Counted from the stretch's first letter, positions 37,489 through 62,675 are shown. The stretch is DNA of 64,000 nt from a virus (IMGVR_UViG_3300028048_000089:32001-96000); one strand, 5' to 3'. Program-made: numbers and translations. Notes: generated by a model not told the origin, from the letters alone.

Positions 37489-37972
37489 TTAATAAATTAA
37501 AGTCATTTTGTACATGTGAGAATTGACTATCTTCAAAAGTACTTTCATACACAGGGGCAATTTTACAAGTAACATATGCAGGAGTTACTGCAATAGTACT
37601 CATATCTTCAACCATAAATAATCTTCCTTTTGCATCATCAAGACCACTAGGAACAATAAATAAAGCACCTCTTTGTAATCCTTTTAACTCATATGGTACT
37701 TGAATCAATGAAGCACTTTCATCAAGTTCAGCATTCCACCCCATTTTCTTCATAGTATATTGATTTGGATGTTCAACAAAAATACAACCAACTTGTTCAG
37801 GTGGATTGTAGAATGAATCCAATTCTCCATATCCATTATAGCGTTTACTACCTTGTTTTGGAGACCTATAGATAACATTAATACCTATAAGTTTGACCAT
37901 TTGTTCAAAATAGAATCTTTGAAGTTTTAGATTATTCTGATTTAGTAAAATGCCTGTATCTTTTTGTTCCAT
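37472..37972 (-). CDS. head closure / neck protein (gp14-like)
   Basis: EQMVKLIGINVIY...YGE...KKMGW pattern; position. Confidence 0.55.
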   Translation of the reverse strand: MEQKDTGILLNQNNLKLQRFYFEQMVKLIGINVIYRSPKQGSKRYNGYGELDSFYNPPEQVGCIFVEHPNQYTMKKMGWNAELDESASLIQVPYELKGLQRGALFIVPSGLDDAKGRLFMVEDMSTIAVTPAYVTCKIAPVYESTFEDSQFSHVQNDFNLLNDEEK

Positions 37973-39702
37973 TATTTAATTTTAACTTTACCTTTAACTT
38001 CTTTATCTTTTGCTTTGTAACCATATGATAAACTTTCACAAACTAAATTGCCATTATCATTTGTACAAACTAAATTAAATGTTCTTTTAGATTTACTGAA
38101 TGTTTCATTCATACCAACAAATCTACATCTGTTATTTTTAACACCTTTGTTATCTAAGACAAATGTAGTGTCTTTTGTGTTACCACTCTTGAATGTAATA
38201 ACACCTTCAACAATAAGTTTATTGTCTTCTAAATTACAAGATGTCATTGTATATTTATCAACATTATTATAAGTTGCTTCAAGATATTTATTAACTAATG
38301 TATTAAATGTATCTTCAGATAAACCATTGAGTTCTAAAGATTCTTTAGCCATGATTGAAGGTCTTTTGTTTTCTTCTTCATCAGTAACTTCATCTTCAAC
38401 TTTGTCTTCACCAACTTCATTGTTTGTGAGTTCATCTTCAACAGTAGCAGAAGAATTTTCAATTTCATCTTTACCAGTTGTTGGAGAAGGTTCTTCTTGA
38501 GGAATATCAAGAGTTGCAATTTGACCAACTAATTCAAAACCATCTTTAGAGCCACAATGCGGACAAGTTTCACCAACATTGTAAACATCTGAATCTTCAT
38601 CTTTTTCTAAGAGTTCAGGTTTCTTAAAGATAGGCGTTTTACAAACTGGACATCTTAACAATACATTACCGACATAAGAATCTTTTAATTCTTCAACTGT
38701 ATCTGCATCAACATCAACAACTTGTTCAATATGTTCATCATTGCCTTCTTCAATAAATTTCTTGCCTTCTTCAACTTCATCTTTATCTAATAAATCAACA
38801 ACAAGGCCTTCATTTAAATCTTCATTGAATTGTTCAATTGGATAATTCTTTCTTAAATCATTAATGCTACCTGCTTCAAGACCATTTTGTTTTAAGAATT
38901 CTTTAACATGTCTTAAAGTTGTTTGAGAAGAAGCCCAGCCTAAGTAACCTTTTCTTAATAGAGTTGCTTTACCATCTTTTGTAATTTTACAAACAGGAGT
39001 ACCATAAGAATAAAGAATCTTTGTACCATCTGGTCTTTCATCAACTTTTGCTTTACCATAGAATGATTTTCTTGAATCATATTCAGGAGCCATATCATGC
39101 ACAGGTTCTTCTTTAAGATTACAAGATTCTTCAACTCTACCATTTTCACTATCCCAAATCTTTGTAGGATTACCATTCACATAATGTAATAATTCCCAAT
39201 GTTTATCAGCCTTCTTTGATTCTAATGTTGCAATAAAATCATCAACATTATCAAGAGAAGAAAAGACTTGAGAATTTTTTGGATTAGCACCATCACTTAA
39301 AACATAATAATCTTCTTGAGATTCAGTAACAACCACATCTTCTTTTAATAAAGTCGCACCATTGATAAAATCTTTCTTGGAGACTTCAATTGTGTTACCA
39401 TCTTCACCTTTAAGAAGAATTGTATCACTATAACCAATCTTATGACCACCATCTTTATCAGTGACAATTTCAAATTTATTGCCATTATAATCAACATGGT
39501 CACCAGTTCTAGCATAATAATATGCTTGACCTTTGTCATACATATCTTTACCAGAAATATTAATTGTTTGAACAGATTCTTTAATTGTCTTCTTTTGAGA
39601 AGTCTTTCTTACTTTTTTAACTTCTTCTTTAACAACATCATCACTGATGTCATCTAATGCCTTAAAAGCATCAACAATAGTAATACCTTTTACTTCTTGC
39701 AT
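37972..39702 (-). CDS. acidic multi-module protein with L-x-E linkers and a zinc ribbon (putative processed head protein)
   Basis: IKES, LLKED, NLKEE, EDLNE linkers; CPVC...CPHC. Confidence 0.55.
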   Translation of the reverse strand: MQEVKGITIVDAFKALDDISDDVVKEEVKKVRKTSQKKTIKESVQTINISGKDMYDKGQAYYYARTGDHVDYNGNKFEIVTDKDGGHKIGYSDTILLKGEDGNTIEVSKKDFINGATLLKEDVVVTESQEDYYVLSDGANPKNSQVFSSLDNVDDFIATLESKKADKHWELLHYVNGNPTKIWDSENGRVEESCNLKEEPVHDMAPEYDSRKSFYGKAKVDERPDGTKILYSYGTPVCKITKDGKATLLRKGYLGWASSQTTLRHVKEFLKQNGLEAGSINDLRKNYPIEQFNEDLNEGLVVDLLDKDEVEEGKKFIEEGNDEHIEQVVDVDADTVEELKDSYVGNVLLRCPVCKTPIFKKPELLEKDEDSDVYNVGETCPHCGSKDGFELVGQIATLDIPQEEPSPTTGKDEIENSSATVEDELTNNEVGEDKVEDEVTDEEENKRPSIMAKESLELNGLSEDTFNTLVNKYLEATYNNVDKYTMTSCNLEDNKLIVEGVITFKSGNTKDTTFVLDNKGVKNNRCRFVGMNETFSKSKRTFNLVCTNDNGNLVCESLSYGYKAKDKEVKGKVKIK

Positions 39703-39711
39703 ATTACTCTC

Positions 39712-41913
39712 CTATTTAACTTTACTTACAGTATAAACATTTCTGTTATGATAAGAATCTTCTGGACTTGTTTCTTCTAATTGTTTCTTTTTATCCATAC
39801 ATTCTTTTCTAGAACCAACCATTATTCTATCAATTTTAATTGGTCTACCAGAATGAGTATCTAAAACTTTAACATGCAAAGAATAAACATCATCTGCACC
39901 TTCTTTTAAAGATTCATTTTTCTTTGTCTTATATGCAACTAAAGGATAATGACTCTTTTCATGTTCCTGTTTTTTATCTTTATATTCAATAAAAAGTAAT
40001 CCATTAGGAACCTCATAGTTATCTTCAACTATATCATAGTATTTAATGTTATTCTCTTTAGCATAGTCTTCTAGATATTTATATGCTTCTTCATATGTAT
40101 CAAATAAATCAATCTCATCACCATCTTCAGTTTCAATTGTTTTTGATTCTTCTAATGATTCTTCTACATCATCAAAGTCATCAATAATTCCTTTAACAAC
40201 AGGAAGACCAAATTTAGATTCACCAACATTTAAACCATTTTTATTTGTGATAACATATCTATCACCAGCATCAATAATGTTGTACCCTTTATATTTACAC
40301 ACAAAACCTTTGCCTCTTGATTCATCTAAAGATTCAGCTTTATCTTTTTTACCTAAACCCCAAGTATCAATGCCATCATAACCCCAAATAAGTTTATCAT
40401 CTTCACTTTCAATTTCACCACTTGGAGATACATAAACTTCAACTGAAGCAAAACCATCTCTATCAACTAATTTTCTAGCAGTTTCAATTGCTTCTTCTCT
40501 TGTAGCAAAATTGTCTGTGTAAATTTCAGAGATACCTTGGTCTCTTAAATCTTCATCTTCCCAATATTTAATATAAATTTCTTCAAAAGATTCTTTAATA
40601 GTATCTTCTTTACAACAATGCTTTTTATAATGATTTCTTGCTTCAGGTTTTAAATTTTGTTTAGAAGAATCTTCACCTAAACTAACACTAGAAGTTTCAG
40701 AAGCATCATCACTTCCCATTGTGTGATTGAAGAATTCAGCTTCTCTTGCAGGGTCACCACAAAATCTAACTTTTACTTTTTTATCTTTCTTTTCATCTAA
40801 ATCATCATTAAGAATCTTATAACCAGTTTCACCATTAGAAGCAGGACCCCAAGCAACACCAAGAGGAGTTAAACCAAATTCTTCTTTTAATTCTTGGAAA
40901 AACTTAGTAAATCTTTCAATTTGTTGTTCTCTAAAGTCATCTTCTAAATCATCAAGGTAATCTTCATGTTCAATATTAATATAGGCTGCTTCATAATATC
41001 CTGGTTCAATATCTAACATAACATCTTCAAGATTGAGGTTATATCCATATTGTTGTTCACCATCAACAACATCTGCATCCCAGGCCATTCTCTTTGTTTC
41101 TTCATTAAAGTCATAGAGTTTGTCTTTTAATCTTTCTTGTTCATCTTCATCTAAGATACACACCTTTTCTTCATCCCGATACTTTTGTTCAAAGGCATCT
41201 TTAGCATCTTCAAAAGCATCCCAATCTATTTCACCATCTTCATTTTCAAATTGTTCTTCTTGAGGATAATCTGGATTATGATGCATATTCCAATAAAATT
41301 CATCAATTGTATAGAAAACTAATAATGGGAAATGTTCTGGACCTCTACCGAAATTAGAAGTACCTTCATCAAGTTTCTTTTCTTCTTTTTCGCACTTGAT
41401 ATTAGTTTCAAAATATCTCCAATCACCATTTAAATCTCTCATATACCAATAAGTGATATCATCTCTTGGGTCAATAGCACCATTTTCAAAATCTTCTTTT
41501 GAGAAATCCCAAAGGTCACCATTATCATAAGCATCACCAAACTTACTCATGTATTCTTTAATATTATGATTGAATTCAACACAAGCACCATTCACTACAT
41601 CATTTGCAGATTCAATGAGATAATCTTTACCAACATGATTACAAATTTCATCTATGATTGCTTTATCATCAATGCCACTCATCATAGCATCAAAAATATC
41701 CCAATAACCTGTAACTTGCCACCAAGCAGAATCTGGCCACACTCTTTCAATTGCATCTTGATAGGCAATCTCAAAAGGTTTTATCTTCATCAATTCATTG
41801 TAATCATTAATGTTACCATCAAAATGTAAACATTTGGCATTTAATTTCTCTCTAGCAGCATTTAATTCATTTCTTAAATTATCTAGTTTACTCATTTTAA
41901 TCTCCTTAATCAA
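39712..41913 (-). CDS. acidic multi-module protein with ES-L-x-E linkers (putative processed head protein)
   Basis: KLDE, DLDE, ESFEE, ESLDE, ESLEE, ESLKE. Confidence 0.55.
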   Translation of the reverse strand: MIKEIKMSKLDNLRNELNAAREKLNAKCLHFDGNINDYNELMKIKPFEIAYQDAIERVWPDSAWWQVTGYWDIFDAMMSGIDDKAIIDEICNHVGKDYLIESANDVVNGACVEFNHNIKEYMSKFGDAYDNGDLWDFSKEDFENGAIDPRDDITYWYMRDLNGDWRYFETNIKCEKEEKKLDEGTSNFGRGPEHFPLLVFYTIDEFYWNMHHNPDYPQEEQFENEDGEIDWDAFEDAKDAFEQKYRDEEKVCILDEDEQERLKDKLYDFNEETKRMAWDADVVDGEQQYGYNLNLEDVMLDIEPGYYEAAYINIEHEDYLDDLEDDFREQQIERFTKFFQELKEEFGLTPLGVAWGPASNGETGYKILNDDLDEKKDKKVKVRFCGDPAREAEFFNHTMGSDDASETSSVSLGEDSSKQNLKPEARNHYKKHCCKEDTIKESFEEIYIKYWEDEDLRDQGISEIYTDNFATREEAIETARKLVDRDGFASVEVYVSPSGEIESEDDKLIWGYDGIDTWGLGKKDKAESLDESRGKGFVCKYKGYNIIDAGDRYVITNKNGLNVGESKFGLPVVKGIIDDFDDVEESLEESKTIETEDGDEIDLFDTYEEAYKYLEDYAKENNIKYYDIVEDNYEVPNGLLFIEYKDKKQEHEKSHYPLVAYKTKKNESLKEGADDVYSLHVKVLDTHSGRPIKIDRIMVGSRKECMDKKKQLEETSPEDSYHNRNVYTVSKVK

Positions 41914-42622
41914 CTGGATAGAATAAATTACTATTATTTCTTAATATTTCTCTTAAATTTTCTAATTCTCTATTACCTTCTTCAAGTAATGTATCACCAT
42001 CAATTGTGTATAAAGCATTACTTTGTTTTGCATAGGTTCTAATTCTACCTAATGCTCTCTTTGTTAATGCTAATGCATGTCTTTGAAGAATATCAATCCA
42101 ATAATCATTCTTAATGTCATCAACATCTTCAAACAAAGGCACATATTCAATTACAATAGTAGAAGGAACTCCACTAGAAATATTTATATACAATTTGTTC
42201 TCATGCTTGTCTTCTCTAAAAGCCAAGTCTGTAGATTGTGTATTTCTAAGTTGTAATAATGTATTATAAGTCATGTAGTTGGTTAAGTAGTTATTTAAGT
42301 TATACATTGAACCACCATTACTATATGCTAACCACACTTGAGCATACATAGGGTCAACACTACTAATACCACCATTACCAGGACCTTGGTCACCAATGGC
42401 TGCATCTCTATAGACATTAACAATTGCACTATGTTTAAAATCAGTTAAATCAATACAAGATGCAAAAGGAACTTGAACAAGTTTAGTTTCATCTATGTAT
42501 CTTTGAATCTCTCTAAGAGATTGCATAACTAACTTACCAATCATCTCATCAGTAATTTCTAATTCAAGAAGACCACCAGTTAACTCAAGTTTAATTGCTT
42601 CAATATAATCAGTTAATTGCAT
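41906..42622 (-). CDS. head-tail adaptor / neck protein (gp13-like)
   Basis: IKLELTGG..ELE...WI...HALALTKRALGRIR...DGDTLLEEG..E. Confidence 0.75.
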   Translation of the reverse strand: MQLTDYIEAIKLELTGGLLELEITDEMIGKLVMQSLREIQRYIDETKLVQVPFASCIDLTDFKHSAIVNVYRDAAIGDQGPGNGGISSVDPMYAQVWLAYSNGGSMYNLNNYLTNYMTYNTLLQLRNTQSTDLAFREDKHENKLYINISSGVPSTIVIEYVPLFEDVDDIKNDYWIDILQRHALALTKRALGRIRTYAKQSNALYTIDGDTLLEEGNRELENLREILRNNSNLFYPVD

Positions 42623-50600: not shown

Positions 50601-51762
50601 CTGTTAAAGCAATACCTTCTTTTATTTGCTTCTCTAAATACTTAAAGTAAGTTTTATTCTTTGCAAGTATATCATTTCTTGCTTCTTGCTTTGCTCTATC
50701 AACATCACTCATTGATTGTGCTGGCTCATCTTCAATTTCAAAAGTTGGTTCATCTTCAACTTTATATTTGTCTAATAAAGCATTAACATCTGCATCATCA
50801 CTAGAGATAAGACCATTTTCAACACATGTTTTAACTGAAACACTTTTACCATTAGAAAGAGTTAATAATGTATCTTCATCATCTTCTTCAACTTCTTCAA
50901 TTGTAACATCATCACCTTTATAAGTAACTTTTTTACCAACTAATGAATCACCTGCAGACTCATAGATATCAGACTTATTAGCAATTCTCTTATCAACAAG
51001 CTCTTTAGCTGCATCAATATCTTTCATACTACCAACTAAAGTACCTTTTGGGTCATAAACTTTCCAGTAGTTTTTCATATTTGTAAAAAGATTATAACCA
51101 GGATGATATACAAGTTTATAGTCTTTGTACATTTGAACTTCTTTATCTTCTTCTAAAGAACAGTCTTCTTCTTTAACAACTTTCTTTTTGCCTTTTTTAG
51201 GACCTTTGAATTGAACAAAGTAAGCAGTATGGTCAATTGCAAATCTATCATCATCTGACCAATAATCAACATCATCATAATGTTTACTTAGAATTTCCCA
51301 AGCTGCTCTTGCTTCAGATTCAAAAGAATATCTAAATATATCTTCCTTTGTGAAATTATTAGTTTCTCTCTTTAATTCATCATATACTTGTTTCTTATTG
51401 AAAGGTTTAGCATCATCCATGTAGTCTTCCTCCATATTAAATGAATCATTAGTTTCTTTACCAAGTTTATTAATATCAACTTTAGTTGTGTCTTCTTTAA
51501 CAATATCTCCATAAGATAAACTCTCATGAGCGATAACAACTTTATCAACTAAGTTTTCACCACCTGGTATTCTATATACATTATAACCATTATTTTCTGC
51601 TATGTCAATTACTTCTGAAGAGGATAAACCATAATTATTAGTAATCTCCTCAATATCAAAATAAGATGGTACTTCTCTTCCATCAGCATAAGTATGTGTT
51701 AATTCATCCATAACACTTAATATGACATCATATTCTGTTGCTTCTTGTAATCTTTTTCTCAT
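47695..51762 (-). CDS. 1355-aa polyvalent protein with a Pol-beta-family nucleotidyltransferase module
   Basis: LLGSNVSYNYTKDSDLDIH (GS...DxD); linkers SLEE, ESLEE, ELKE, DLEE, ESIEE, HLEE. Confidence 0.7.
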   Translation of the reverse strand: MRKRLQEATEYDVILSVMDELTHTYADGREVPSYFDIEEITNNYGLSSSEVIDIAENNGYNVYRIPGGENLVDKVVIAHESLSYGDIVKEDTTKVDINKLGKETNDSFNMEEDYMDDAKPFNKKQVYDELKRETNNFTKEDIFRYSFESEARAAWEILSKHYDDVDYWSDDDRFAIDHTAYFVQFKGPKKGKKKVVKEEDCSLEEDKEVQMYKDYKLVYHPGYNLFTNMKNYWKVYDPKGTLVGSMKDIDAAKELVDKRIANKSDIYESAGDSLVGKKVTYKGDDVTIEEVEEDDEDTLLTLSNGKSVSVKTCVENGLISSDDADVNALLDKYKVEDEPTFEIEDEPAQSMSDVDRAKQEARNDILAKNKTYFKYLEKQIKEGIALTEFELAYYDEYKRLLKDASMKTLRKYSGVIEKSYKGDIEELLAWLRRAITNITVVAGDSLMKSTQEKVDALNKRDGTDVEINYQANKSWSSWIADISTKEDIVKDMPKEFLEWSYDKNTGQTIDDYSEGLVFNQKQSRLTSNPVVLDLLFEYDFKLGKQNKNESLEEDTNDEVVEETNEYKIVKTIQHNFKTVNGVARKGKDKVIYQVYFRTQDFNPATNRWMNRGWANSTSDFDSIEDARAYVKKYGKELKEEVKEIQVRDNENIEKDAEECPLPLDVIPNEMGINLSNVEKVKWDEQEDGQLKKVEIDFNPGDDLEEGIIGVSGINDATANKELLKILPSDLRAKEIHFDLGNQNCIFTPLSIKQATEILKNNGWAKPRDVSSLRKQEYDLGDKYRYSVYTNDPYSTTDALYEPDLSQAPQYWFDIVLGQDDLVSNRKTNKPATNITILGWGENKKQESIEEDIEKHVAFSCKDCPYRRECPRSDPLAPQWTGPLRAIFGCPEEYLIKKFGSPERYTKTNEIKEGIEKHNILIDKPSGKDVFEILTNANYNVRKDESKPILTYIINYNDKDYEVINYGWDGDNFFVDLDKSLIDEDIEKHDELNPKLFDGEELKPEIKDKIEQIAYQFIRELNEDGIRFTLKDIVLLGSNVSYNYTKDSDLDIHLIADSSGLECPDDLYPLLYSAYRSMFNKNYDIKIKGIPSEIYVEMDEPQAKSNGIYSLNNGWLKKPEQKDIPDLDESAFDKLFMEWEDKYFNLINGEPTAESIEDFIEDIYDLRKSSIASDGEYGLGNLVFKEFRNLGYLDNLKDLRKQCVSKELSLEHLEEDFSKEVCEKIYNATLSNNGGTFDKNTGEDLSGKDVLKSAYSVEFKSKDWNKRISEINKDEFIKALNELQSSEESAIADSIGTWSSTDGDAQASCGLNKLFKDRPEAEKFALEHGQDAIGSFDDNGNYKETIYKKDFIINKK

Positions 51763-51780
51763 AATTTAGTTCTATCTTAA

Positions 51781-51789
51781 AATTTAGCA
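51781..51789 (-). promoter_or_regulatory. putative late promoter motif
   Basis: TGCTAAATTTTAAGA. Confidence 0.65.
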
Positions 51790-51795
51790 TAAATG

Positions 51796-54700
51796 CTATT
51801 CTTCATCATACTTTTCAAAATCATCATATGCTTTATTTATATCAGGTAACCCTTTAATTGTAGGGAAAGTATCTCTCAAATCACCTTTATGCCAACATTC
51901 ACCACCCATGGCATCCATACCATTATTAAATGGTGTACCATAGCCAACATGTGGGAAATCAGTCTCATCAAATAAACACCAATTTTCATCATCTACATAT
52001 TCTAAAGCATATTTAGAATTCTTATTTTTCTTATTTAAGAAGAAATATATTGTTGCATCAAAGTCTTTTGTATGATGATTAAAATCAACTCTACCTTGGT
52101 CTGAATTGTTTCCAGTTATGCACCATTCAGTGCCTTTACCGTATTTAACAGATGCTTCATAGGTATTAATTTTTAAAACTAACCAATTATCATCTTCATA
52201 TATTTTTTCAGAACCTGCTTTGCCTAATTTATTTATCTCTCTTCTTGTTGGAGTTTGTTCAACATCATCTAATGCAGTTTTCAAACTATTAATTGCACTA
52301 TCATGTGCCCATTCTTCATAGTTTGAAATATCAGAGTATTCTTGAGCCCTTTTATACCTATCTTTAAGATTTAAAAGTTGCTTCTCATTTCCCATCCAAT
52401 AATAAATATCTTTTGCTCTATCTGGTAATCTATCTTTCAATTTAAAAAATCTATTAGCAAGTTCATCTCCTGCCCATTGTCTAAACTTTTCTATATCTTG
52501 CTTAGATTCATTTAGAGATTCACTAAAGAAACCACCTCTAATATATGCTTGATTAATTGCTCTAATAATATCATCAGCATCACTTACATCTAAATCAAAT
52601 AACTCATCACCTACAGACGTATAGACTGCTAAAAGATTTTCTCCTTTACTATCTACTTTCTCTTCTGGGAATATATCATACCAATAAAATTTTCCTTCTG
52701 GTTCAAATAAGTCTTTTCTATCTAATATCTTTCTAATTGCATTAAGTTGTTCTGGTGTAGGTCTTGCTTTATCTGGCATACTTAAATATGGGTAAGTAAC
52801 ATTCATTTTTATACAATTATCATAAATAGCATTTAGATTGTACCCTTTTTGATATGCCCAATCTTCAAAATCACTATGTTCATATATTGGGTCTTCTCCT
52901 ACTTCATCCCAATATTCTTGAGCATTATCTGGATTTAAGAAATGACCATTAGGAAGAATATAAGTTGACCACATATAAAGTTCTTCTTGTCCAAATTCTT
53001 TATCTAAAGCATCTAGAACATTATCTTTAACATCTTCATGTAAAGATTCTTTAATATTGTCATATTTGATGTTATATTTATCAGCATTCTGTTTTAATTC
53101 AGCATTAATGTTACTGTTAAAAATGTTAGGGAACTCATTTGTAGAATGAGCACCTTTAATGCTCACTATTTCTAAGACATTACTTAAGTCATATGATGAC
53201 ACACCAATTTCATCTAAGAAAACTATGTCATCATCATAATGATAATATGCTTTGCTTATTGTTTTAGTTTTATTAAAATTTTTAGCAACTGCATATCTAC
53301 CCTTTGCAACTGCTACAATATCTTCCTTATTAAATTTACATTTCAATGTTATTCTGTTTTTGTATATTCTGAATCTATAATAATCAGTATAGAACAGTAT
53401 TATTTTTGTATTTCTATCAGTAACATTATCAAAATGCACCCAATCATTATCATCAGGAATCCACTGACCCTCAATAACATCACCACTAAATAGTCTATAG
53501 AACTCATCATTTGTTATAGTTCTATAGCAAATAACCTCATCAGATAAATCATCTCTACTTATTGGTGTTGAAATTTCTATATCTTTGTTAAAAGTTTCTT
53601 CCTCTAATGATTCACCAAAGAAACCTCTAGACATAGCAAATTTAACATCACTTATAATCTCATCACTTGTAGGGTTATTAAATTGTAAGTCCCATTTTTG
53701 ATGAGCATAATTTGTACCTACAAATGCTTGAATATCATAAATCTTCTTTGAGTATTTATTCTTAAGAATGTAATCAACAAAATCTTGTAATGAGTTTAGT
53801 TGACTTGAAGTTATTGAACTATAAGGAATAACAAAGTACGCTCTATCTTCAATATCAGCTTTTGAGCCATCGTTAACTCTTATCAATTTAAAGAATCTAG
53901 TAAAGAAGTTTGTTAAGTTAGAAGTATCAAACTCATTTTCTATTTCTTGCTCATTAAGACCTTCAATATCCATTAAACATTGAAAAGCTAAATCACCATG
54001 CATTTCAAATCTTTTACCAGATAATAAATACTTACCATCTGGCATAATAAATGCAGGACCACAAGATTGATATGTATTACTTACTAAATCAGGATATTTT
54101 TTACATATATCTTCCAAAGTAAATGAAAACTCATCGCCCTTAATTTCTACTTCTTCATTCATATGTTTAAAATAATGAACTTGTTGAAGTCTCTTTTCAG
54201 CTTCTTTCTTAGTATCATAAGTTCCTAAGTTCTTAGTTCCATCTTCACTTTGAACTTGATATTTACCATTATTTAATTTAACTATTTTTTCATTTAGTTG
54301 TTTAAATTCATCTAAACTATATATTTCTAAATTGTGAGGTTTAGCATTCTTCTTTAACCAAATTTCATTTTCTGGGTACTGTTTATTTGCACTATAATAA
54401 ACATAAGTATGCTGAGTTAATTTCCAATCAACATCTTCTTCATTAATTTCTCCTACTAGAATAGTCTTAAAATTATTTCTATTAATGAAATTCTTATCTA
54501 TTGTCCAATGTACACCTAAGTTATTTAAATCAATTTGGTTTTTATCCTTCCAAAGTAACCCTCTATAAACTTTTAAAGGAAACTTTAGATTATTGCAAAA
54601 ATCAACAACACTATCAAAATCATCCTCATGGTCTTGAGTTGTCTTAGTGGCTAAATCTTTTTGAGAGTCTCCCATATTTTTAAAGTATCTCATTTGCTGA

Positions 54701-57700
54701 TTGAAAAAATTCTTTTTAACTTCCTTTTTATTGGTGTTATATTCTTTTAAAGGCTCACTAAAGAACCCACCTCTAATATAGGCTCTATTAATTGCTTTAA
54801 TAATATCATTTGCATCACTTACATTTTCTTTACTCATTAGAGAATAGCCAGCATATAATTCATTAAATTTATCTTCATCATGATGTGGATATTCTTTGTT
54901 TATCTTCTTAGCATATTTATTTACTCTATCTATATGAGCATGAGTTCTTTCATCAAACTTCTTTTGATAATCTTCTTTGTCTATCTTCTCAGTTAAATAG
55001 CCTCTACCATATGCTTCTTTACACTTCTTAAGAATCTCATCTGTTGTATAATCACTATCATAATATGTCTTAGGTGCATAACTTTTAAAACCAACAGTTA
55101 ATTTATGATGAAATCTAAAATACCAATCTAACCACATTAAAAGTGAATTCCATTGAGTTTCATTAGGCCTATCATCTGGTAACCAAATATATTCTTCAAA
55201 ACCACCATTGACTCTAATACAACCTAATCTTTCTAATTCTGGTGTTTCAACTTGCCAAAAATCTTCTTTTGCATAACCTTTATCATATAAGAATTGTTGA
55301 ACATCTCTATGAGTAGCACTACCTGAAGCACTATATTTACTTACTGGTATCTTACTTCTCCAAATAGTTAGAAATTTTCCATCTGGCATAATATAACTTG
55401 GACCATCAATTGGTCTATCACTTGTACCTATTTCTTTTTCTGCAAATTCAATAGTACTCATATCAGCATCTTCATTCATATGCTTAAACATCTCAACATC
55501 TTTAAGTCTCTCCTCTGCTTCTTTCTTAGTATCATAAGTACCTAAGTTCTTTCCTTTTTCACTTTGAACTTGCCACTTACTTCCCTTTTTAACTATTTTT
55601 TCATCTAACTTTTTAGTTTCAATAATAGGTTTGGTATTGAACACTACAAAGGTAGTTTCTCCACTATGTTCCCAACACATACCATCAAAACCTAATTCAA
55701 CTAAATGTTCTTTGAAATCTTTACTTAAAATATCTTTTTCAGTTATTTCTCTATTAAAGAACTTTTTGGCTTCTTCAAATACATCATTTGTTTCCAAATC
55801 ATATATTTTAGAAGTATCTAAAATGCAAGTAAAGATGTTTTTACCATGTTCTTTCGCATACTTTTTATCAGTAGTGAACCAAACACCAGGTTCAGTTTTA
55901 ATATGAGTTAAATCAAACTTGTCTATATCACTATTAGTTCCGTGATAAACCATTATCACCTTATTATCTTTATTTTCGTTAGCAACTTTTTTAACTATTT
56001 TTTCTTTAAGAGATTCTCCTGCTTTAGCATGTATATTACCACCTTTTCTAGGTTCCATAATTTTCTTAAATGTACCAGGTTTTAAATCATAAACAACTGT
56101 ACCATAACCAAAATTATCAAGACCACTAAGTCCTTGAGCATCTTTATTAAGATGTGTAACATCAACACCTTCATAACCAAGGCCTTTCATAAGCATTGTA
56201 GATATAGAATCTTCACTATTACTTTCATATGCTTTATGAATAATATCTAAAAGAGTTTTTTCATTAACATTAAACATCTTACTTAATGTTTTCAATGCAT
56301 ACTTTAAACCTGAAATATTTCTTGCTTTATAATGTATAGCATCTTCAACATGCTTTTCAATTTCACCTGATTTCATTGTGTCAATGTCTTTCCAAACATA
56401 TTCTTCAAGGCCATATTTAGCAATAAACTCTTTAACAAGTTTTCTATAATTATCTAATGACTTGTCTTGTTCTTTTACAGCATCTTCATAATCTTCACTA
56501 TCATCGGATAAATCATCTAAATCATCAAAATCTAAATCAATGTCATCATCGTCTAAATCTTCATCAACAAGAGTCCAACCAATATTAAATAATTCATCAT
56601 CTAATGCTTCTTCATCAAAATTAGAATTTAACCAAGTATCTAAACTTGGTTCATAACCATCATTAATTTCTTTTAATGTATCATGTAATCTATAAGCACT
56701 ATCATTATCTTTTGGTTTATAGAGATTATAATTATCTAATTCAATTTCATATATTGGTCTACTTGGTTCATAATCATACTTCTTTATCTTGTTATCTTTA
56801 TCTAAACCATAAGGCCCTTCTTTACCAACAAAATAGAAACCAGTACCAAAATGACCAGTACCTCTACCACCCATCATCTTTCTAGTATCTGTTTTCTTGG
56901 CATAATCTAAGTCACCCCAAGTGATTGCTTTCTCTTCATTTAAATCTTCATTTATGTGGTCTGCATATTTATAGTCTTTTATTTCTTTAGGCTCACCTAA
57001 TGCTTTATAAAGTTGTGTATTTTCTAAAGAATTTTTATTTACTTGTGACCATTCTTTAGTTACATCTACAATTCTAGTATTTTCATAATCATACTCTCTT
57101 CCTGTAGAATAGTCAACAAAAATATTTATCTTTTTATCATAAGGAACGACATTTAAGTAAACATTATTGGCTTTATTATAATCTCCACTAATATATCCAT
57201 ATTGTTTAGCATACGCAATCATATCTGCATGTGTATTTCCATATGGGCTTCCTATTAACCACAATTCTTCTCCATTTACATGAACACCAACTAATTTAAG
57301 TGCTCTCTTACTGTTTAAGATTTTATTCTTAATTTCATAAGGAGAAGAGGAAATTAAAATTCCTGTTTGCTCTATTTCTTTTAAACTTTCATCTAGAGAT
57401 TCTTCAATAACTTTAACAACTGAAGTAAAAGGAATAATGCCATGATATTCTACTGTTGAATCATTATCCAAAACATTCTCATCTATAAACAACTTTTCTT
57501 TATCTAATTTATTGGTATCTATTTTCAATACAATAATATTGTCTGCATATTTATCATAATCTTCAACGTCATCTAACCATTCTGCAGTTTCAGCATAAGA
57601 ATAAGCAACATCTTTATCTAAAGCAAGATAAACAACACCTCTACCTTTACTATCAGACCACATTTTTCTTCCTGTATTTCCAAGACCTTTCTCTTTAATT

Positions 57701-59583
57701 GATTTTAAGAATGGCTTATATGTCGCATGATATAGATATTGTGGTAATTCAAAATCCACTTCTTCATCTAATGATTCATTTACTTTACCTAAAACTTTAA
57801 CTTGGTCAAATAAACCAAATGTTTCAACATTCTTGTCATTTATACTATCATATTCAATTGCTTTAATTCCATTGTAACCTAAACCTTCTAAGATTCTCTT
57901 GAAAGCCATTGACCTTACAACTGGTCTTATAGCAAGTCTATATGGATTAACACTATACTCATCAGCAACATTGTCAATTACTTTTCTAATTGCATCTTCA
58001 CTAATGTTTAATCTTCTAATAATTGCAGTAAATTCTCTAGAGAACTTTAAAGGAGTTGAAGGAATCATATCAAACACTCTAGCATCAGTTTTACCTACAT
58101 CTAAAAGATTTCCTAGAGTTGCACTACATTTATAAACATAACCATTACCTAAGGCAAATGTTTTAGCATAATCATAATCTTTTGTAATCCAATTTATAGG
58201 TCTATTTAGATAACCTTCAATATCTTCAACAGAACCGTGAAAATAGACATCCTCAGACACTTTTTCGCTTTCATTGAGATTTTCATCATAATTTTTATTA
58301 AACCTGCTTAAATAGTCTTTTGAGAGACCTAAACCATTTAATACACTACTTGAGATATCTCCACTCTTAATATCAAAAATTAATCTATTTGCTAACATAA
58401 TAGGAAATACATACAATCTTCCAGGATGTACATGTTCTAATTCATCTGCATCAAAACTATTGATAAAGAAGTCATCAAGTTCACCATCTGACCAATCACT
58501 AATGCCACATCTATTGTTTGCCCACATGAATAATTCAGTATAGTCTTTTATAGGTGAGATTAACCAACCATCATAATCTTCTTCTAGAACTATATATTCT
58601 GCTTCATTTTCTAAAGTATATTTAAGTGAATTTAATTTTTCTTCTTTTGTATTACCGCTAAGAGAGGCTAATTCATAACCAGCAAGTGCAGGTAAGTCAC
58701 CATCCCACATAGAATCTTCATCAAATTCTTCACCTGTTATTCTTTTATACTCTTCTGGTGTTATATCTCCATTAGCACATGCTTCAAATTCAAGATAACC
58801 ATCTGGAATCATATCATCAACCGCAGTTAAAAGGTCATTAAGTTCATCTCTACTATAAATTTCACATTCATTGCCTGTATTATCTGTAAAAGTTTCTTGA
58901 ATAATTTGCTTTAAAACATTACTATCAATTCTTTTATTCATAATAGCATTAACTAAAATGTTGCTATTACTTTCATTTTTATAATCTGCTTTAATTTCAT
59001 CAATAACAGGAGCATTAGGAATATATGGAATACCTACATCTTCAGCATTAAAAATTTCACAACTATTATCTGGATATACTGCTAATGCATATTTAGTATC
59101 TTTGTTAATAAAGAAATAGAATCTTACGCCATTTTGTGAATAATATTGGTCAAAGTAACCTGCGCCTTCTTCTCCATTAGCCCATCTCTTTGAACCACTA
59201 ATACACCACTTAGTACCTTTACCATACTTAGCACTTGCTTCATAGTTTGTAATCTCATATACTTTCCAGTCATTATCAGAATACACTAATCTAGCACCAT
59301 CTTTTTCTTTATCTTTAAGTGCAGTCTTTTCTCTATGCTGTTTTAAAAGTTCATCCACATATTTCTTCAAATCATCTGGAGTACTATTTTTCATCCAGTA
59401 ATAGAAGTCATTGTATGGTGATTTAATTCTTGGTTTTAAGAAAATAAAGTTCTTAACTAGACTATTAGCAAACATCTCTTTATCATCATCTAGGATAAAT
59501 TTTTGAGTTGTATTATTAAGAATCCAGTTTTTAAACTTCTCTTGGTCTTCTTTTGCTTCTATGATAATTTTCTCTTTTGGCAT
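51796..59583 (-). CDS. ~2595-aa polyvalent protein with several ADP-ribosyltransferase-like modules (probable start 59583, MPKEK)
   Basis: VYFHGS, YLYHAT...VYL, GHFGTGFYF, VYHGT...GVWFT, VYRGL...ENE motifs; about 14 L/M-x-E linkers; AAGGA RBS before 59583; the ORF-track start lies inside the promoter motif. Confidence 0.7.
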   Translation of the reverse strand: MPKEKIIIEAKEDQEKFKNWILNNTTQKFILDDDKEMFANSLVKNFIFLKPRIKSPYNDFYYWMKNSTPDDLKKYVDELLKQHREKTALKDKEKDGARLVYSDNDWKVYEITNYEASAKYGKGTKWCISGSKRWANGEEGAGYFDQYYSQNGVRFYFFINKDTKYALAVYPDNSCEIFNAEDVGIPYIPNAPVIDEIKADYKNESNSNILVNAIMNKRIDSNVLKQIIQETFTDNTGNECEIYSRDELNDLLTAVDDMIPDGYLEFEACANGDITPEEYKRITGEEFDEDSMWDGDLPALAGYELASLSGNTKEEKLNSLKYTLENEAEYIVLEEDYDGWLISPIKDYTELFMWANNRCGISDWSDGELDDFFINSFDADELEHVHPGRLYVFPIMLANRLIFDIKSGDISSSVLNGLGLSKDYLSRFNKNYDENLNESEKVSEDVYFHGSVEDIEGYLNRPINWITKDYDYAKTFALGNGYVYKCSATLGNLLDVGKTDARVFDMIPSTPLKFSREFTAIIRRLNISEDAIRKVIDNVADEYSVNPYRLAIRPVVRSMAFKRILEGLGYNGIKAIEYDSINDKNVETFGLFDQVKVLGKVNESLDEEVDFELPQYLYHATYKPFLKSIKEKGLGNTGRKMWSDSKGRGVVYLALDKDVAYSYAETAEWLDDVEDYDKYADNIIVLKIDTNKLDKEKLFIDENVLDNDSTVEYHGIIPFTSVVKVIEESLDESLKEIEQTGILISSSPYEIKNKILNSKRALKLVGVHVNGEELWLIGSPYGNTHADMIAYAKQYGYISGDYNKANNVYLNVVPYDKKINIFVDYSTGREYDYENTRIVDVTKEWSQVNKNSLENTQLYKALGEPKEIKDYKYADHINEDLNEEKAITWGDLDYAKKTDTRKMMGGRGTGHFGTGFYFVGKEGPYGLDKDNKIKKYDYEPSRPIYEIELDNYNLYKPKDNDSAYRLHDTLKEINDGYEPSLDTWLNSNFDEEALDDELFNIGWTLVDEDLDDDDIDLDFDDLDDLSDDSEDYEDAVKEQDKSLDNYRKLVKEFIAKYGLEEYVWKDIDTMKSGEIEKHVEDAIHYKARNISGLKYALKTLSKMFNVNEKTLLDIIHKAYESNSEDSISTMLMKGLGYEGVDVTHLNKDAQGLSGLDNFGYGTVVYDLKPGTFKKIMEPRKGGNIHAKAGESLKEKIVKKVANENKDNKVIMVYHGTNSDIDKFDLTHIKTEPGVWFTTDKKYAKEHGKNIFTCILDTSKIYDLETNDVFEEAKKFFNREITEKDILSKDFKEHLVELGFDGMCWEHSGETTFVVFNTKPIIETKKLDEKIVKKGSKWQVQSEKGKNLGTYDTKKEAEERLKDVEMFKHMNEDADMSTIEFAEKEIGTSDRPIDGPSYIMPDGKFLTIWRSKIPVSKYSASGSATHRDVQQFLYDKGYAKEDFWQVETPELERLGCIRVNGGFEEYIWLPDDRPNETQWNSLLMWLDWYFRFHHKLTVGFKSYAPKTYYDSDYTTDEILKKCKEAYGRGYLTEKIDKEDYQKKFDERTHAHIDRVNKYAKKINKEYPHHDEDKFNELYAGYSLMSKENVSDANDIIKAINRAYIRGGFFSEPLKEYNTNKKEVKKNFFNQQMRYFKNMGDSQKDLATKTTQDHEDDFDSVVDFCNNLKFPLKVYRGLLWKDKNQIDLNNLGVHWTIDKNFINRNNFKTILVGEINEEDVDWKLTQHTYVYYSANKQYPENEIWLKKNAKPHNLEIYSLDEFKQLNEKIVKLNNGKYQVQSEDGTKNLGTYDTKKEAEKRLQQVHYFKHMNEEVEIKGDEFSFTLEDICKKYPDLVSNTYQSCGPAFIMPDGKYLLSGKRFEMHGDLAFQCLMDIEGLNEQEIENEFDTSNLTNFFTRFFKLIRVNDGSKADIEDRAYFVIPYSSITSSQLNSLQDFVDYILKNKYSKKIYDIQAFVGTNYAHQKWDLQFNNPTSDEIISDVKFAMSRGFFGESLEEETFNKDIEISTPISRDDLSDEVICYRTITNDEFYRLFSGDVIEGQWIPDDNDWVHFDNVTDRNTKIILFYTDYYRFRIYKNRITLKCKFNKEDIVAVAKGRYAVAKNFNKTKTISKAYYHYDDDIVFLDEIGVSSYDLSNVLEIVSIKGAHSTNEFPNIFNSNINAELKQNADKYNIKYDNIKESLHEDVKDNVLDALDKEFGQEELYMWSTYILPNGHFLNPDNAQEYWDEVGEDPIYEHSDFEDWAYQKGYNLNAIYDNCIKMNVTYPYLSMPDKARPTPEQLNAIRKILDRKDLFEPEGKFYWYDIFPEEKVDSKGENLLAVYTSVGDELFDLDVSDADDIIRAINQAYIRGGFFSESLNESKQDIEKFRQWAGDELANRFFKLKDRLPDRAKDIYYWMGNEKQLLNLKDRYKRAQEYSDISNYEEWAHDSAINSLKTALDDVEQTPTRREINKLGKAGSEKIYEDDNWLVLKINTYEASVKYGKGTEWCITGNNSDQGRVDFNHHTKDFDATIYFFLNKKNKNSKYALEYVDDENWCLFDETDFPHVGYGTPFNNGMDAMGGECWHKGDLRDTFPTIKGLPDINKAYDDFEKYDEE

Positions 59584-59612
59584 AATAAAATCCTTTATTT
59601 TGTTAATCAATA

Positions 59613-59621
59613 AATTTAGCA
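59613..59621 (-). promoter_or_regulatory. putative late promoter motif
   Basis: TGCTAAATTTATTGA. Confidence 0.7.
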
Positions 59622-59775
59622 TGATAAATGTATTTTAATTTGAATGTTTTACTCACGCGTGTACATACGCGTATAATAGCTTTATATAGCTTATATATAA
59701 TATATACATACAGTTATATAACAGTTACAAAAGAATTATATCAAAAGAAATACTACAAAGAAAAGTTTAAATAAG

Positions 59776-59798
59776 AAAAAAGCACTATTTCTAGTGCT
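59776..59798 (-). terminator. intrinsic terminator
   Basis: AGCACTA-GAAA-TAGTGCT followed by a T tract. Confidence 0.75.
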
Positions 59799-59824
59799 AT
59801 TCTTTAACTTTAATATTTAATATC

Positions 59825-60745
59825 TTAACCCCTTCTATAAGCATATAGATTATTGCCGAGGTCAATTTCATCACCATCGTAGGTGGCAAGGAAGTGGGCA
59901 ATGCCATCTTCACTGATGCATTCTTCAACTAAACTATCTAAGTCAATAAGATTATTATCTACAACAACTTGTGATAATTCTTCATTACTATAGATATCTT
60001 TAACAAAATCTTCAACATCCATATTAGAACAGAGATAATCTAAGAATTCATCTTTCTTGTATTCTAAGTCAACACTACTGCTTAAGGTTTTTTCAGCCCA
60101 TTCATCTTCACCATCAATAATGAAGTCATCATCAGTTAAGATACCCGCATCAACCATTTCAGCAAGTAATCTATTATCATATTCAGCATCACCTTCAGAT
60201 TCAATGTCATCAATATAACCTCTATAATAATCATACATATCATCTTCAAATGCACTCCAGTCAATAAAGTTATCTAAGATATATGATTGGAAACTTTCAG
60301 AGAATGCTTCTAAACCCATTTCATCATAGATTTGTTCAATTTCTTCAGTAGCAGCGTCATATGCTTCATCATAGGTGCCAACCCAATATTCACCTTCAGG
60401 AGTAATAAAGTTATGACCATCACCCCAAGAACTTAATTCAATATCTTCTTCATTAACACCTAAATGTTCAGCCAATGCTTTAATGATAAATTGAGTATCA
60501 TCATCTTGAATATCATCTTCTCTTAATTTTAAATCTTCGTTCATATTGTTTTCCTCACTAGAATTATTATATGCATCAAAATCTACATTGTCAATATTAA
60601 AATCTTGTCTTACTCTTTTATGTTCACTTGGAATAAAGTCAACAAAAACAGTACAAGTATCTCCATCAATTTCTTCTAAGATACCTTCTTTGTTATCCCA
60701 AACACTATTAGTATTTTTAATTTTAACTTTTTGTCCAATATTCAT
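59825..60745 (-). CDS. very acidic protein: small KOW/SH3-like N-module plus DNA-mimic-like module
   Basis: IGQKVKI...GILEEI; EDLKLRE linker; D/E-rich body. Confidence 0.5.
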   Translation of the reverse strand: MNIGQKVKIKNTNSVWDNKEGILEEIDGDTCTVFVDFIPSEHKRVRQDFNIDNVDFDAYNNSSEENNMNEDLKLREDDIQDDDTQFIIKALAEHLGVNEEDIELSSWGDGHNFITPEGEYWVGTYDEAYDAATEEIEQIYDEMGLEAFSESFQSYILDNFIDWSAFEDDMYDYYRGYIDDIESEGDAEYDNRLLAEMVDAGILTDDDFIIDGEDEWAEKTLSSSVDLEYKKDEFLDYLCSNMDVEDFVKDIYSNEELSQVVVDNNLIDLDSLVEECISEDGIAHFLATYDGDEIDLGNNLYAYRRG

Positions 60746-60747
60746 AA

Positions 60748-61101
60748 TTAATCAATGTCATCATATTCAGCATTTTTTCTTGCTTGATATTCTGCTTCTT
60801 CTCTATCTAGTTCAATGTCTTCTTCAACTTTTTCTTTGAATTCTTCAAATGCATCTTCTTTACATTTATCTTTAAACCATTCTTCCATATCAGATTCAAC
60901 AGCATCAAAAACACCAAATTCAACAAGAGTATTCCAGATGTCATTGTCTTTGCCATCAATGTTAATCATTTGTCTATCAAACCATTCTCTAACACCTTCA
61001 ATGAATGTATCAAATGGAATTTCATAGAAGTAACTATCTTTATGGCCTTTGTATTCAAATTCTGGATAGTAAACTTCGTATCTTGTTTTGTCATCTTTCA
61101 T
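60748..61101 (-). CDS. acidic hypothetical protein
   Basis: ORF coupled to the upstream gene. Confidence 0.6.
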   Translation of the reverse strand: MKDDKTRYEVYYPEFEYKGHKDSYFYEIPFDTFIEGVREWFDRQMINIDGKDNDIWNTLVEFGVFDAVESDMEEWFKDKCKEDAFEEFKEKVEEDIELDREEAEYQARKNAEYDDID

Positions 61102-62675
61102 TATTCTTCACCTTCTTCTTCAGATTCTTCTGCTTCTTCTTCAATTAATTCTTTAATATAATCTATTGCATCATCATAAGAATCAAATTTGTGAGTATCT
61201 AAGACATTTTGAACCATATCAACATCTTGACCTAATTCATTAGCAATGCTTTCTGCCCAATCACTTGAATCTTCTTCATATGGGTCACCATATTCTTCAG
61301 TTAAGTCTTCAGCATATTGCTCTAACCATCTATATAAGTTACCATCAAGTTCATCATAAGCAGCTTTATTTAAGCCATCAATATACACATAACCATTAAC
61401 TTCAACACTTGCATTATAACAACCAGCATTTTCACACCAAGATTCAACTTCCCATTGAATGTCTCTTTCACTAATATTACCTTTTTCTAAGTGTGCATCT
61501 AATTCACTAGGAATATCAGCATCAGTTTCATATGTAGGAACAAGACCTTCATCATCTAACCATCTTTCAACATCTCTATAATCAATATCTAACATATCAG
61601 AGGTTTCTTTTGCTAATAATGTTGGATTTGCTTTAATAGTATCAACAGCAAACTTCTTCATATCTTCAACCCAACGGTCATAGTAATTACCATCATAATT
61701 ATTTTCAGCTGAGATAAGAACAGCATCCCAGAATGGTGTTTCATCATCAATTTCAACATTCATAAGGAACTTCGCAGCTGGACCTGCAGTTTCAATACCA
61801 TAGTCTTCAAACCATCTATCACCATCATTGAACCATCTATATTCAATTTTATTAACTGCTCTGAGGATTTCACCTGCAAGAGTATCACATTTACCACTAT
61901 CTGGAACTAACACATCAAATAAATGTTCAAATGACCAATCATCACCAATTGTTTTAACAATTTCATCAGCTTTTGCTTTAAGTTCATTTTCTTTAGCAAT
62001 TTTGGCATCTCTTTCTGCTCTTTGTTGTGCAACTTTATCTCTTCTTGCTTTCATTCTTGCTTCAAAGTCAGCTCTTTCTCTTTCTTCTTCAGCATCTAAT
62101 TCATCATCACTCATGATACCATCATCATCAGGTGCTTCAGTTAAAGTTTCTTTGTCTTCATTTAAAGAATCATTTAATAAATGGTCTTGTGCTTGAGTAG
62201 AAAGAGATTTACACATTTTTTCTTTATCTTCTTTAGACATTTTAGCAACTCTTTCTTTTGCTTCTTTTTCATCTGCACATGTACCAAAAGCAACTAATTT
62301 ATCAACTAAATCTTTATCACTACAAGATTCTTTTAAGTCTTCATCTAAAAATAAGAAGTTCTTAACAATCTCACCATTCTTTTTACAAATACAATAACCT
62401 ACTGAGTTAATATCATAAGTAAAATCTACTAAATCTTCTACATCATCAAAATCAGCTTCAAATGGACCTTTAACAATGCCATAAGAGCCTTCAACACCCT
62501 TCTTGACATAATCATTTACAAATACTTCAGCTTCTTCTAAAGATTCAGTAGCAAATTGGTCATCATCATAAAAAGAAAGTTTGCCACCATAGACATTATC
62601 ATATTTATATGCATCATATTCTTTATCATCAGGATTTAATAAAATACCTGTTTCAACTTCATAATACTTTTTCAT
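61101..62675 (-). CDS. acidic multi-module protein with L-x-E linkers
   Basis: EDLKE, DSLNE, TLTE; module LVPDSGKCDTLAGEILRA..I.YRWFNDG. Confidence 0.55.
   Translation of the reverse strand: MKKYYEVETGILLNPDDKEYDAYKYDNVYGGKLSFYDDDQFATESLEEAEVFVNDYVKKGVEGSYGIVKGPFEADFDDVEDLVDFTYDINSVGYCICKKNGEIVKNFLFLDEDLKESCSDKDLVDKLVAFGTCADEKEAKERVAKMSKEDKEKMCKSLSTQAQDHLLNDSLNEDKETLTEAPDDDGIMSDDELDAEEERERADFEARMKARRDKVAQQRAERDAKIAKENELKAKADEIVKTIGDDWSFEHLFDVLVPDSGKCDTLAGEILRAVNKIEYRWFNDGDRWFEDYGIETAGPAAKFLMNVEIDDETPFWDAVLISAENNYDGNYYDRWVEDMKKFAVDTIKANPTLLAKETSDMLDIDYRDVERWLDDEGLVPTYETDADIPSELDAHLEKGNISERDIQWEVESWCENAGCYNASVEVNGYVYIDGLNKAAYDELDGNLYRWLEQYAEDLTEEYGDPYEEDSSDWAESIANELGQDVDMVQNVLDTHKFDSYDDAIDYIKELIEEEAEESEEEGEE

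Follow-up and report, generated by a model that had tools for sequence, protein, structure and literature searches.

An uncultured phage, represented by a virus record of 115,328 bp with about 29% G+C (IMGVR_UViG_3300028048_000089), carries among its virion and late genes an array of genes for acidic, multidomain proteins, which is the subject of this report. The window, by which we mean the whole stretch of DNA that was analysed, comprises 64,000 nucleotides (bases 32001-96000 of the record), and its minus strand holds nearly all genes. Nine minus-strand acidic open reading frames (ORFs) were found at window positions 37972-41913 and 44992-62675, namely the eight large ones described there in a first-pass annotation of the same sequence and one small one in addition. 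They encode proteins of 576, 733, 374, 506, 1355, 2608, 306, 117 and 524 amino acids (aa), 7,099 aa in total, with an Asp plus Glu fraction of 0.18-0.32 and a pI of 4.1-4.8. The array is flanked by the capsid gene and the head-tail adaptor gene of a phage that has portal and terminase genes (Table 1). From the sequences we consider it likely that these proteins are cargo polyproteins, packaged into the T4-type head of a myophage, and that a protease of the S77 family cuts them at exposed [L/I/M]-x-E linkers; packaging, cleavage, ejection and effector roles are what we infer from the arrangement described below.

Linker motif of the acidic proteins

The pentapeptide ESLxE occurs 15 times in the nine acidic proteins, whereas 300 residue shuffles yield 0.30 on average and never more than 3; none of the other 129 ORFs of the genome, which total 29,037 aa, contains it. 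The first-pass annotation had called the motif rare in the tail and replication proteins, and both this rarity and an excess over compositional expectation are borne out. With Ile allowed in place of Leu (ES[LI]xE) the counts are 17 against 2. An enumeration of all gapped patterns of 3-5 residues placed ESL.E at rank 1, and this unbiased ranking together with the shuffles rules out an artefact of chance or low complexity. Plain [LI]-x-E shows no overall enrichment in the acidic proteins (121 observed, 103 expected). The signal is the extended motif and its placement at borders, not plain [LI]-x-E. Codons differ among the sites (TCT, TCA or AGT for Ser; TTA, CTA or CTT for Leu; GAA or GAG for Glu) and the flanks are unrelated, which rules out a DNA-level repeat; what is constrained is thus the peptide E-S-L-x-E, with Ser, Asp or Glu as the next residue.

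Not every protein of the array has the strict form. Motif-bearing boundaries had been ascribed to the large ORFs; strict ESLxE is present in six of the proteins and absent from those of 576, 306 and 117 aa. The variants EDLNE, KLDE and HMNE, listed alongside it in the first-pass annotation, sit at module starts that homologues confirm. Strict ESLxE is a clade preference and not a protease rule, the capsid protein site and the leaders described below having no Glu-Ser. The same variants bear on the suggestion that S-x-x-E, placed among acidic residues, is phosphorylated by a kinase of the casein kinase 2 type or serves as some other modification or binding motif. S-L-x-E formally fits S-x-x-E, but the Ser is dispensable, since junctions of relatives read NINE, RLEE, KLDE and HMNE, it is Leu/Ile and Glu that stay constant, and no kinase was identified; we regard this explanation as extremely improbable.

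Linkers as module borders

A phmmer search of 1.8 billion representative proteins with residues 452-1650 of the 2608-aa protein, here called the giant protein, gave 1,219 hits, many of them single-module proteins of 110-320 residues; several of its modules exist elsewhere as proteins of their own. In the best-aligned stretches of 150 homologues, block starts and ends cluster at residues 620, 745/749, 896, 1207 and 1384, which are the positions of ESLDE, ESLDE-SLKE, EDLNE, ESLKE and HMNE, respectively. Large homologues are 52-75% identical across shared parts and have their modules reordered, the same modules appearing in other orders and combinations in P0001-P0003, P0009 and P0011 with joints at L-x-E. 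In P0001, for example, the module that follows HMNE in the giant protein comes after ESLKE, and a different module stands behind the ESLKE that matches residues 1203-1207.

Across 194 unique homologue contexts, [LIM]-x-E lies at most three residues from the module start in 125 and exactly at the start in 70, against 22 ± 4 for random positions, and L-x-D and L-x-K are depleted. Junctions taken with no motif filter have Glu at P1 in 60 of 93 cases and Leu, Ile or Val at P3 in 60 of 93. This module-start analysis was used in place of raw BLAST breakpoints of long homologues, which are enriched only about three-fold at ES[LI]xE because high-scoring segment pairs cross collinear modules and many joints are variant motifs.

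An AlphaFold model of giant-protein residues 452-1230, built from an alignment of 42 sequences, shows confident domains parted by low-confidence stretches that hold or adjoin the sites at 616-620, 892-896 and 1203-1207. ESLDE 616-620 is inside a segment (model residues 165-171) with a predicted local distance difference test score (pLDDT) below 50, at which homology blocks also switch, and ESLKE 1203-1207 (model residues 752-756) adjoins a low-pLDDT stretch at model residues 747-754. Modelled alone, module 897-1207 forms one unit (pLDDT 88, predicted template modelling score 0.82) in which confidence drops just in the final dozen residues, leading into ESLKE. Three independent tests (homology blocks, the shuffling of modules among relatives, and the predicted structure) agree that the sites are genuine borders between modules, as had been claimed from the sequence alone.

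Shuffling of this kind raises the question whether the joint serves mainly recombination, with a shared GAA-TCW-TTA-NNN-GAA letting modules swap in frame and no proteolysis taking place. The modules are indeed heavily shuffled with breakpoints at the motif, and the Glu-Ser preference is clade-specific, as homogenization of the joints predicts. About nine fixed bases with varying synonymous codons are nevertheless a poor substrate, distant relatives with 47% GC retain the amino acid pattern, and the leaders of single genes and the link to an S77 protease, described below, would be left unexplained. Recombination as the main function is thus very unlikely, and it may be a secondary benefit rather than a competing explanation.

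Content of the modules

Searches of Pfam and PHROGs left most modules without a name. The clearest assignment is the ADP-ribosyltransferase (ART) domain ART-PolyVal (PF18760) at giant-protein residues 1222-1331, which scores 55.7 bits against a cut-off of 31.2 and begins 15 residues past an ESLKE. The site-to-site segment 622-742 (model residues 171-291) is predicted to be exactly one Tpt1/KptA-like ART domain: the model superposes on the NAD-binding domain of Tpt1/KptA with a Z score of 12.2 and a root-mean-square deviation of 2.3 Å over 94 residues at 26% identity, and more weakly on other enzymes of the ART fold. The widespread module 897-1207 gave a confident model with no clear known fold, the best Z score (7.2) falling on a helical insert; the PARP4 catalytic domain reaches Z 6.1 and Foldseek gave E >0.5, and the module is not called an ART.

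In the 1355-aa protein, the polyvalent-protein domain LPD5 (PF18799) directly follows ESLEE with 21.2 bits, below the cut-off of 27, and residues 984-1209 are covered by phrog_36119 (2.7e-31), a family of unknown function that is conserved in the distant relative G001; the same residues have weak, below-threshold matches to nucleotidyltransferases. DUF2188-like mini-modules in the giant protein are weakly assigned, as is a ferritin-like helical module in the 374-aa protein that recurs in a differently placed gene of G001. Only the ART-type modules securely carry an assignable activity, one ART-PolyVal domain by profile and one Tpt1/KptA-like fold by model. The first-pass description of the array as an anti-defence and host-takeover set is accordingly a reasonable guess for the putative ARTs; the nucleotidyltransferase and LPD5 candidates stay below threshold, and the majority of modules have no assignment.

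Head protease, capsid protein and leaders

The first-pass annotation had looked to a gp21-like protease elsewhere in the genome, and one was located beyond the window in the head module upstream of the array (locus L001), as an S77 protein fused to a long coiled-coil scaffold (Table 1). A whole-protein phmmer search of this protease against the PDB returned nothing. In a profile of four relatives, itself only a weak match, the segments GELGHP and G-I/V-S-S-R-G (SSRG) align with T4 gp21 segments and are invariant; we take these segments to hold the catalytic His and Ser of gp21. The capsid protein is of the gp23 type (PF07068, 105 bits) and the portal of the gp20 type (Portal_T4, 142 bits). Around residues 150-185 the portal (L001:13841-15715) has a variable acidic loop with ALNE and KLEE, which in G001 contains KLNE, SIDE and ESLKE, and to judge from these sequences the portal, in contrast to T4 gp20, may be a further substrate of the protease or a docking site for it.

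The capsid protein, where a site of the same kind as the linkers had been anticipated, contains K-M-N-E followed by A; an 84%-identical relative has R-M-N-E followed by A, and the 53%-identical proteins of G001 and L005 have F-L-N-E followed by Q. This conserved [M/L]-N-E lies 26 residues ahead of a PNLIA motif that aligns with residue 37 of mature T4 gp23, whose mature N-terminus is 36 residues ahead of the equivalent motif. K-M-N-E is therefore near the expected point and is the predicted maturation site. Identical M-N-E residues occur in the giant protein, where H/K-M-N-E ends both DUF2188-like mini-modules. The linkers also fit the specificity of T4 gp21, which cuts after Glu with Leu or Ile two residues before (PMC9026906), as first proposed.

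Ten-residue leaders that end in the cleavage site direct T4 internal proteins to the prohead core (PMC9026906), and the N-terminus of IPII and IPIII, read from the T4 record, is MKTYQEFIAE. In the array, the 1355-aa protein begins MRKRLQE followed by A, a leader that recurs in the close relative L018, and the giant protein from Met14 begins MPKEKIIIE followed by A. Because its longest ORF opens inside a TGCTAAATT box (59613-59621), the giant gene probably starts at Met14 (59583), which would place this leader at the N-terminus. Stand-alone homologues of the modules start with MKFRLVE, MKFKLIE, MKLNE or MKINE. On a 13.7-kb contig of another phage from ENA (L016), seven neighbouring separate genes begin MKF(R/K)L(V/Q)E or a close variant; among their products are an ART-PolyVal protein and a homologue of module 897-1207. 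Judged by these sequences, the L016 set appears to be one of T4-style, separately encoded internal proteins, the unfused counterpart of the polyproteins described here.

Relatives and covariation with the S77 protease

The cultured phages nearest to it by capsid protein share about 30% identity; they are myophages that infect Bacillus, Listeria and Streptococcus. Among uncultured relatives, L018 is close and has the same gene order, with a giant protein of 1810 residues and a different module set, whereas G001 is distant (47% G+C, protease 50% identical) and has a smaller syntenic array between capsid and adaptor genes, in which individual joints read L-x-E. Against GenBank phages, the sole match of the giant protein is a stretch of 120 residues in Lak phages, and the search for related loci returned no relatives for the 1355-aa protein or P0039.

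The family of module 897-1207 is present on 57 IMG/VR contigs. Most of these, including phages of about 40 kb, have the module in the middle of an ORF of >2,000 residues without a preceding L-x-E. Peptidase_S77 was found in five records, and in all of them (4/4 unique contexts) [LI]-x-E stands at the module start, compared with L-x-E in 6/39 of the S77-negative records (Fisher p=0.0017), a contrast that involves small numbers, many fragmentary records and records related to each other. In the phages of about 40 kb that were tested (five records, four of them at least 90% complete by CheckV) the module has no L-x-E joint, and no S77 protease was found.

These data bear on two further explanations. 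The chains may be packaged and delivered intact, as the N4 virion RNA polymerase is, the L-x-E joints being flexible linkers or relics of the leaders of fused genes that are uncut today. Stand-alone homologues with leaders make fusion of such genes a plausible origin, one site (741-749) is predicted to be helical, and the polyvalent-protein literature records large proteins that are transferred uncut (PMC5512222). Relics would decay, yet Glu at P1 and Leu or Ile at P3 are kept over about 100 divergent junctions with Asp and Lys depleted at P1; the joints have no Met-Lys-Phe of the leaders and a Glu-Ser preference of their own, and association with S77 is unexpected for a passive linker. We consider uncut delivery unlikely. 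Alternatively, the linkers may be cut by another enzyme or at another time, for instance by a host protease after injection or by an undetected peptidase module within the chains. Iyer et al. (2017) propose self-processing by embedded peptidases before or after delivery (PMC5512222), and most modules here are without assigned function. Pfam, however, shows no peptidase domain in the nine proteins or in 20 fragments of them, most modules of which have no assigned fold; the motif matches the specificity class of a protease that is present, the capsid protein has the same M/L-N-E, and the covariation is with S77, so that a different enzyme seems quite improbable.

Two observations on related sequences may be added. 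In L082 (G007, IMG/VR 3300028805_000213) the S77 match has a single TGA in frame, a hint that TGA is recoded in that phage or that the gene is broken. A second polyprotein lineage (P0110, P0126, P0128, P0132 and P0148; L020 and L021) has a Tpt1-like ART module with (Q)GVAE on both sides and N-termini of the form M-[KR]-x-x-x-E-[FIL]-x-x-E, as in the leader of T4 IPIII; its contigs of 3-6.5 kb are too short for a test of covariation with a protease.

Genomic context

Upstream of the array and beyond the window, the head module encodes the capsid protein, protease-scaffold, portal and large terminase; downstream are the adaptor, sheath, tube, baseplate hub and baseplate wedge genes. The adaptor gene divides the cargo array and marks a head/neck context. 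The sequence TGCTAAATT occurs 13 times, every copy on the minus strand, where 2.5 are expected, and its placement suggests a promoter-like box. Copies lie upstream of cargo genes (62701, 51781 and 47682), of the adaptor gene (42661), of the sheath gene (35500) and of other late genes, so the observation that cargo and sheath genes share one box holds; tail tube and sheath are under the same box, with copies at 35500 and 33482, in a late structural context. Membership of the 306- and 117-aa proteins in the cargo set is uncertain. In the 576-aa protein, the single site EDLNE aligns with ESLKE at the homologous junction of G001. The giant protein has seven ESLxE sites together with ENLNE, EDLNE, two HMNE and EPLKE.

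Table 1. Features of the putative cargo array and associated genes (window coordinates unless stated otherwise)
Feature	Position	Strand	Description
Tail tube and tail sheath genes	33624..35439 (tube 33624-34214; sheath 34234-35439)	minus	phrog_45, phrog_23
Acidic protein, 576 aa	37972..39702	minus	EDLNE 294-298 as only site; C-terminal half conserved in G001
Acidic protein, 733 aa	39712..41913	minus	downstream of adaptor gene; ESLDE 527-531, ESLEE 585-589, ESLKE 667-671
Head-tail adaptor gene	41906..42622	minus	phrog_211 head-tail adaptor Ad2, 4.6e-9
Acidic protein, 374 aa	44992..46116	minus	ESLKE 69-73 and 143-147, ESISE 275-279
Acidic protein, 506 aa	46116..47636	minus	ESLKE 384-388; syntenic homologues in L018 and G001
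Polyprotein, 1355 aa	47695..51762	minus	leader MRKRLQE; CSLEE 201-205, ESLEE 549-553, ESIEE 846-850
Giant polyprotein	51796..59622	minus	longest ORF 2608 aa; about 12-15 homology-defined modules
Variant linker KHMNE, giant-protein residues 1380-1384	55471..55485	minus	after DUF2188-like mini-module; second copy 54154-54168
Example linker ESLKE, giant-protein residues 1203-1207	56002..56016	minus	between 897-1207 module and ART-PolyVal module
Example linker ESLDE, giant-protein residues 616-620	57763..57777	minus	between two modules
Acidic proteins, 306 aa and 117 aa	59825..61101	minus	no strict site; order kept in L018
Acidic protein, 524 aa	61101..62675	minus	ESLEE 44-48, plus EDLKE, DSLNE, EDLTE; TGCTAAATT at 62701-62709
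Peptidase_S77 (T4 gp21 family) fused to long coiled-coil scaffold	L001:9921-11411, genome 105921-107411, beyond window	minus	PF03420 33.5 bits (cut-off 27); phrog_207 1.1e-34

Other features of the region were noted. Window positions 42819-44991, about 2.1 kb between the cargo array and the adaptor gene, contain no ORF of more than 60 codons in any frame and have a G+C content of 0.35, above that of the surroundings; a TGCTAAATT box lies at the upstream end (44922-44930) and a minus-strand tRNA-Met(CAT) gene (42743-42818) terminates the region. An Rfam search gave no family for it even at E<=1, and it may therefore be a large structured RNA. The large terminase (L001:15763-19239, genome 111763-115239, beyond the window) is in two ORFs, the first of which has an intein splicing domain and a GIY-YIG/NUMOD homing-endonuclease module. 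A paralogue of this module, a GIY-YIG homing endonuclease (window 32969-33460; phrog_314, 1.5e-27), stands between the genes for tail tube and baseplate hub and has a TGCTAAATT box to itself, and an HNH homing endonuclease (L001:12649-13788) stands between portal and head genes. The genes at window 62986-63783, on the upstream border of the array, and at L001:11493-12173, beside the protease gene, are paralogues of each other; their N-terminal halves are similar and they match no family.

Proposed processing and delivery

Under the reading that we favour, cargo would be made late from TGCTAAATT promoters, alongside the structural proteins, and the chains would enter the core of the assembling prohead, at least two of them with a leader of the T4 capsid-targeting type (MRKRLQE, MPKEKIIIE). 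The scaffold-fused serine protease of the gp21 (S77) family would then cut after Glu in [L/I/M]-x-E, both in the capsid-protein propeptide and in exposed linkers of the ESLxE type, releasing about 30 modules of roughly 45-530 residues. These modules would remain in the DNA-filled head and go into the host with the DNA, where those of ART type and others would act ahead of any phage gene expression. A single leader could in this way load many effectors, and conserved joints would allow in-frame swaps of modules.

A number of observations weigh against this scheme. Plain [LI]-x-E is as frequent inside the modules as chance predicts, so the protease would need accessibility or extra context to choose among sites, and the Glu-Ser of ESLxE is present neither in the capsid site nor in the leaders. 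The modules are acidic (pI about 4-6), whereas T4 internal proteins are basic, and several array members have no clear leader or strict site. The double site 741-749 is modelled by AlphaFold, with moderate confidence, as the start of a helix. G001 has few ESLxE and no enrichment of it, LDDG being its top pattern, and nucleotide and protein searches of GenBank phages found nothing for the array or for module 897-1207. The protease profile of four relatives has T4 gp21 (5jbl) as its top match in the PDB, but a weak one (E 0.027), and the absence of S77 from many contigs is uncertain, since these are fragments.

Beyond the source phage, we lean slightly towards a general strategy of punctuation, in which phages with a head protease fuse pre-made effectors into a few giant chains with one leader each, to be diced in the capsid at joints that co-evolve with the specificity of the protease. 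Separate leader-bearing genes, as in L016, and fused chains, as in the source phage, would then be two states of one system, and both the injected arsenal of an uncultured phage and the specificity of its protease could be read from sequence alone. The source genome would be the case best anchored to experiment because its code (L/I-x-E with an S77 protease) is that of T4 gp21, which opens the idea to established T4 tools.

If the joints are cut, they would make the array a phage counterpart of viral polyprotein processing that serves delivery and not expression, with one signal loading at least a dozen enzymes in fixed ratios and uniform joints easing their re-assortment. The T4 model of leader, core and gp21 cut would extend from single small proteins to modular chains, and the class of polyvalent proteins would gain a concrete processing mechanism. 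The linkers would also allow proteins active within the first seconds of infection to be recognized by sequence, among them candidates for counter-defence and new ART-type activities.

Comparison with known systems

Polyvalent proteins and their predicted packaging (PMC5512222), as well as processing of head-internal proteins by gp21-type proteases (PMC9026906, PMC10052503), are already known, and the literature that we searched nowhere describes polyvalent proteins whose joints carry the cleavage motif of a head protease encoded by a separate gene. A close parallel is T4 gp21 with IPI-III and Alt. It shares with the source phage the protease family (Pfam S77), a gp23-type capsid, a gp20-type portal, cleavage after Glu with Leu or Ile two residues before, short leaders ending at that site and ART cargo. 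In T4 the cargo consists of separate small, mostly basic proteins with their own leaders, and gp21 trims terminal propeptides. In the source phage up to about 13-15 modules are fused in an acidic chain with internal sites and the preferred joint E-S-L-x-E, the protease is fused to a coiled-coil scaffold, and identity to T4 proteins is low, the capsid protein being about 24% identical to those of T4-like phages.

The polyvalent proteins of Iyer, Burroughs, Anand, de Souza and Aravind (2017, PMC5512222) are likewise giant multidomain late proteins encoded beside virion genes, with ART-PolyVal domains, domain shuffling and predicted packaging and injection; LPD5 is shared below threshold. A polypeptide of that class contains two to fifteen unrelated effector-type domains, and the giant protein has about 12-15. 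Processing is proposed there by embedded zincin-like or C-terminal assemblin-like peptidases, and the passages searched mention no repeated linker matching a separately encoded head protease. Phages of about 40 kb among those examined here have the 897-1207 module in proteins of this polyvalent type without an L-x-E joint.

In the giant phages phiKZ, 201phi2-1 and SPN3US, a diverged gp21 homologue cleaves many proteins of the head interior after Glu, and some propeptides among their ejection and inner-body proteins are cleaved in several places (PMC10052503, PMC9026906). Their motif is Ala/Ser/Gly-x-Glu, and what is removed is mostly an N-terminal propeptide of a single protein (PMC10052503, PMC9026906). 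The sites of the source phage and its relatives are internal, with Leu, Ile or Met at P3 in 120/120 motif-aligned joints (60/93 with Leu, Ile or Val when unfiltered), and no sequence relation was found between its cargo and the proteins of the phiKZ/SPN3US type. Bacillus phage vB_BceM-HSE3 and Listeria phage LIS04 infect low-GC Gram-positive hosts; these myophages have a capsid protein of the gp23 type (about 30% identity), and their head, neck and tail genes follow one another as in the source phage. HSE3 has one small ORF between capsid and neck genes and lacks the cargo array of about 20 kb; because its neck genes follow the capsid gene almost directly, the array is an addition in the lineage of the source phage. 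RNA-virus polyproteins, which have no evolutionary relation to these chains, work in the same way, in that a viral protease dices one translation product wherever a short consensus separates functional units; in the phage, the dicing would occur in the capsid and would serve the delivery of pre-made proteins.

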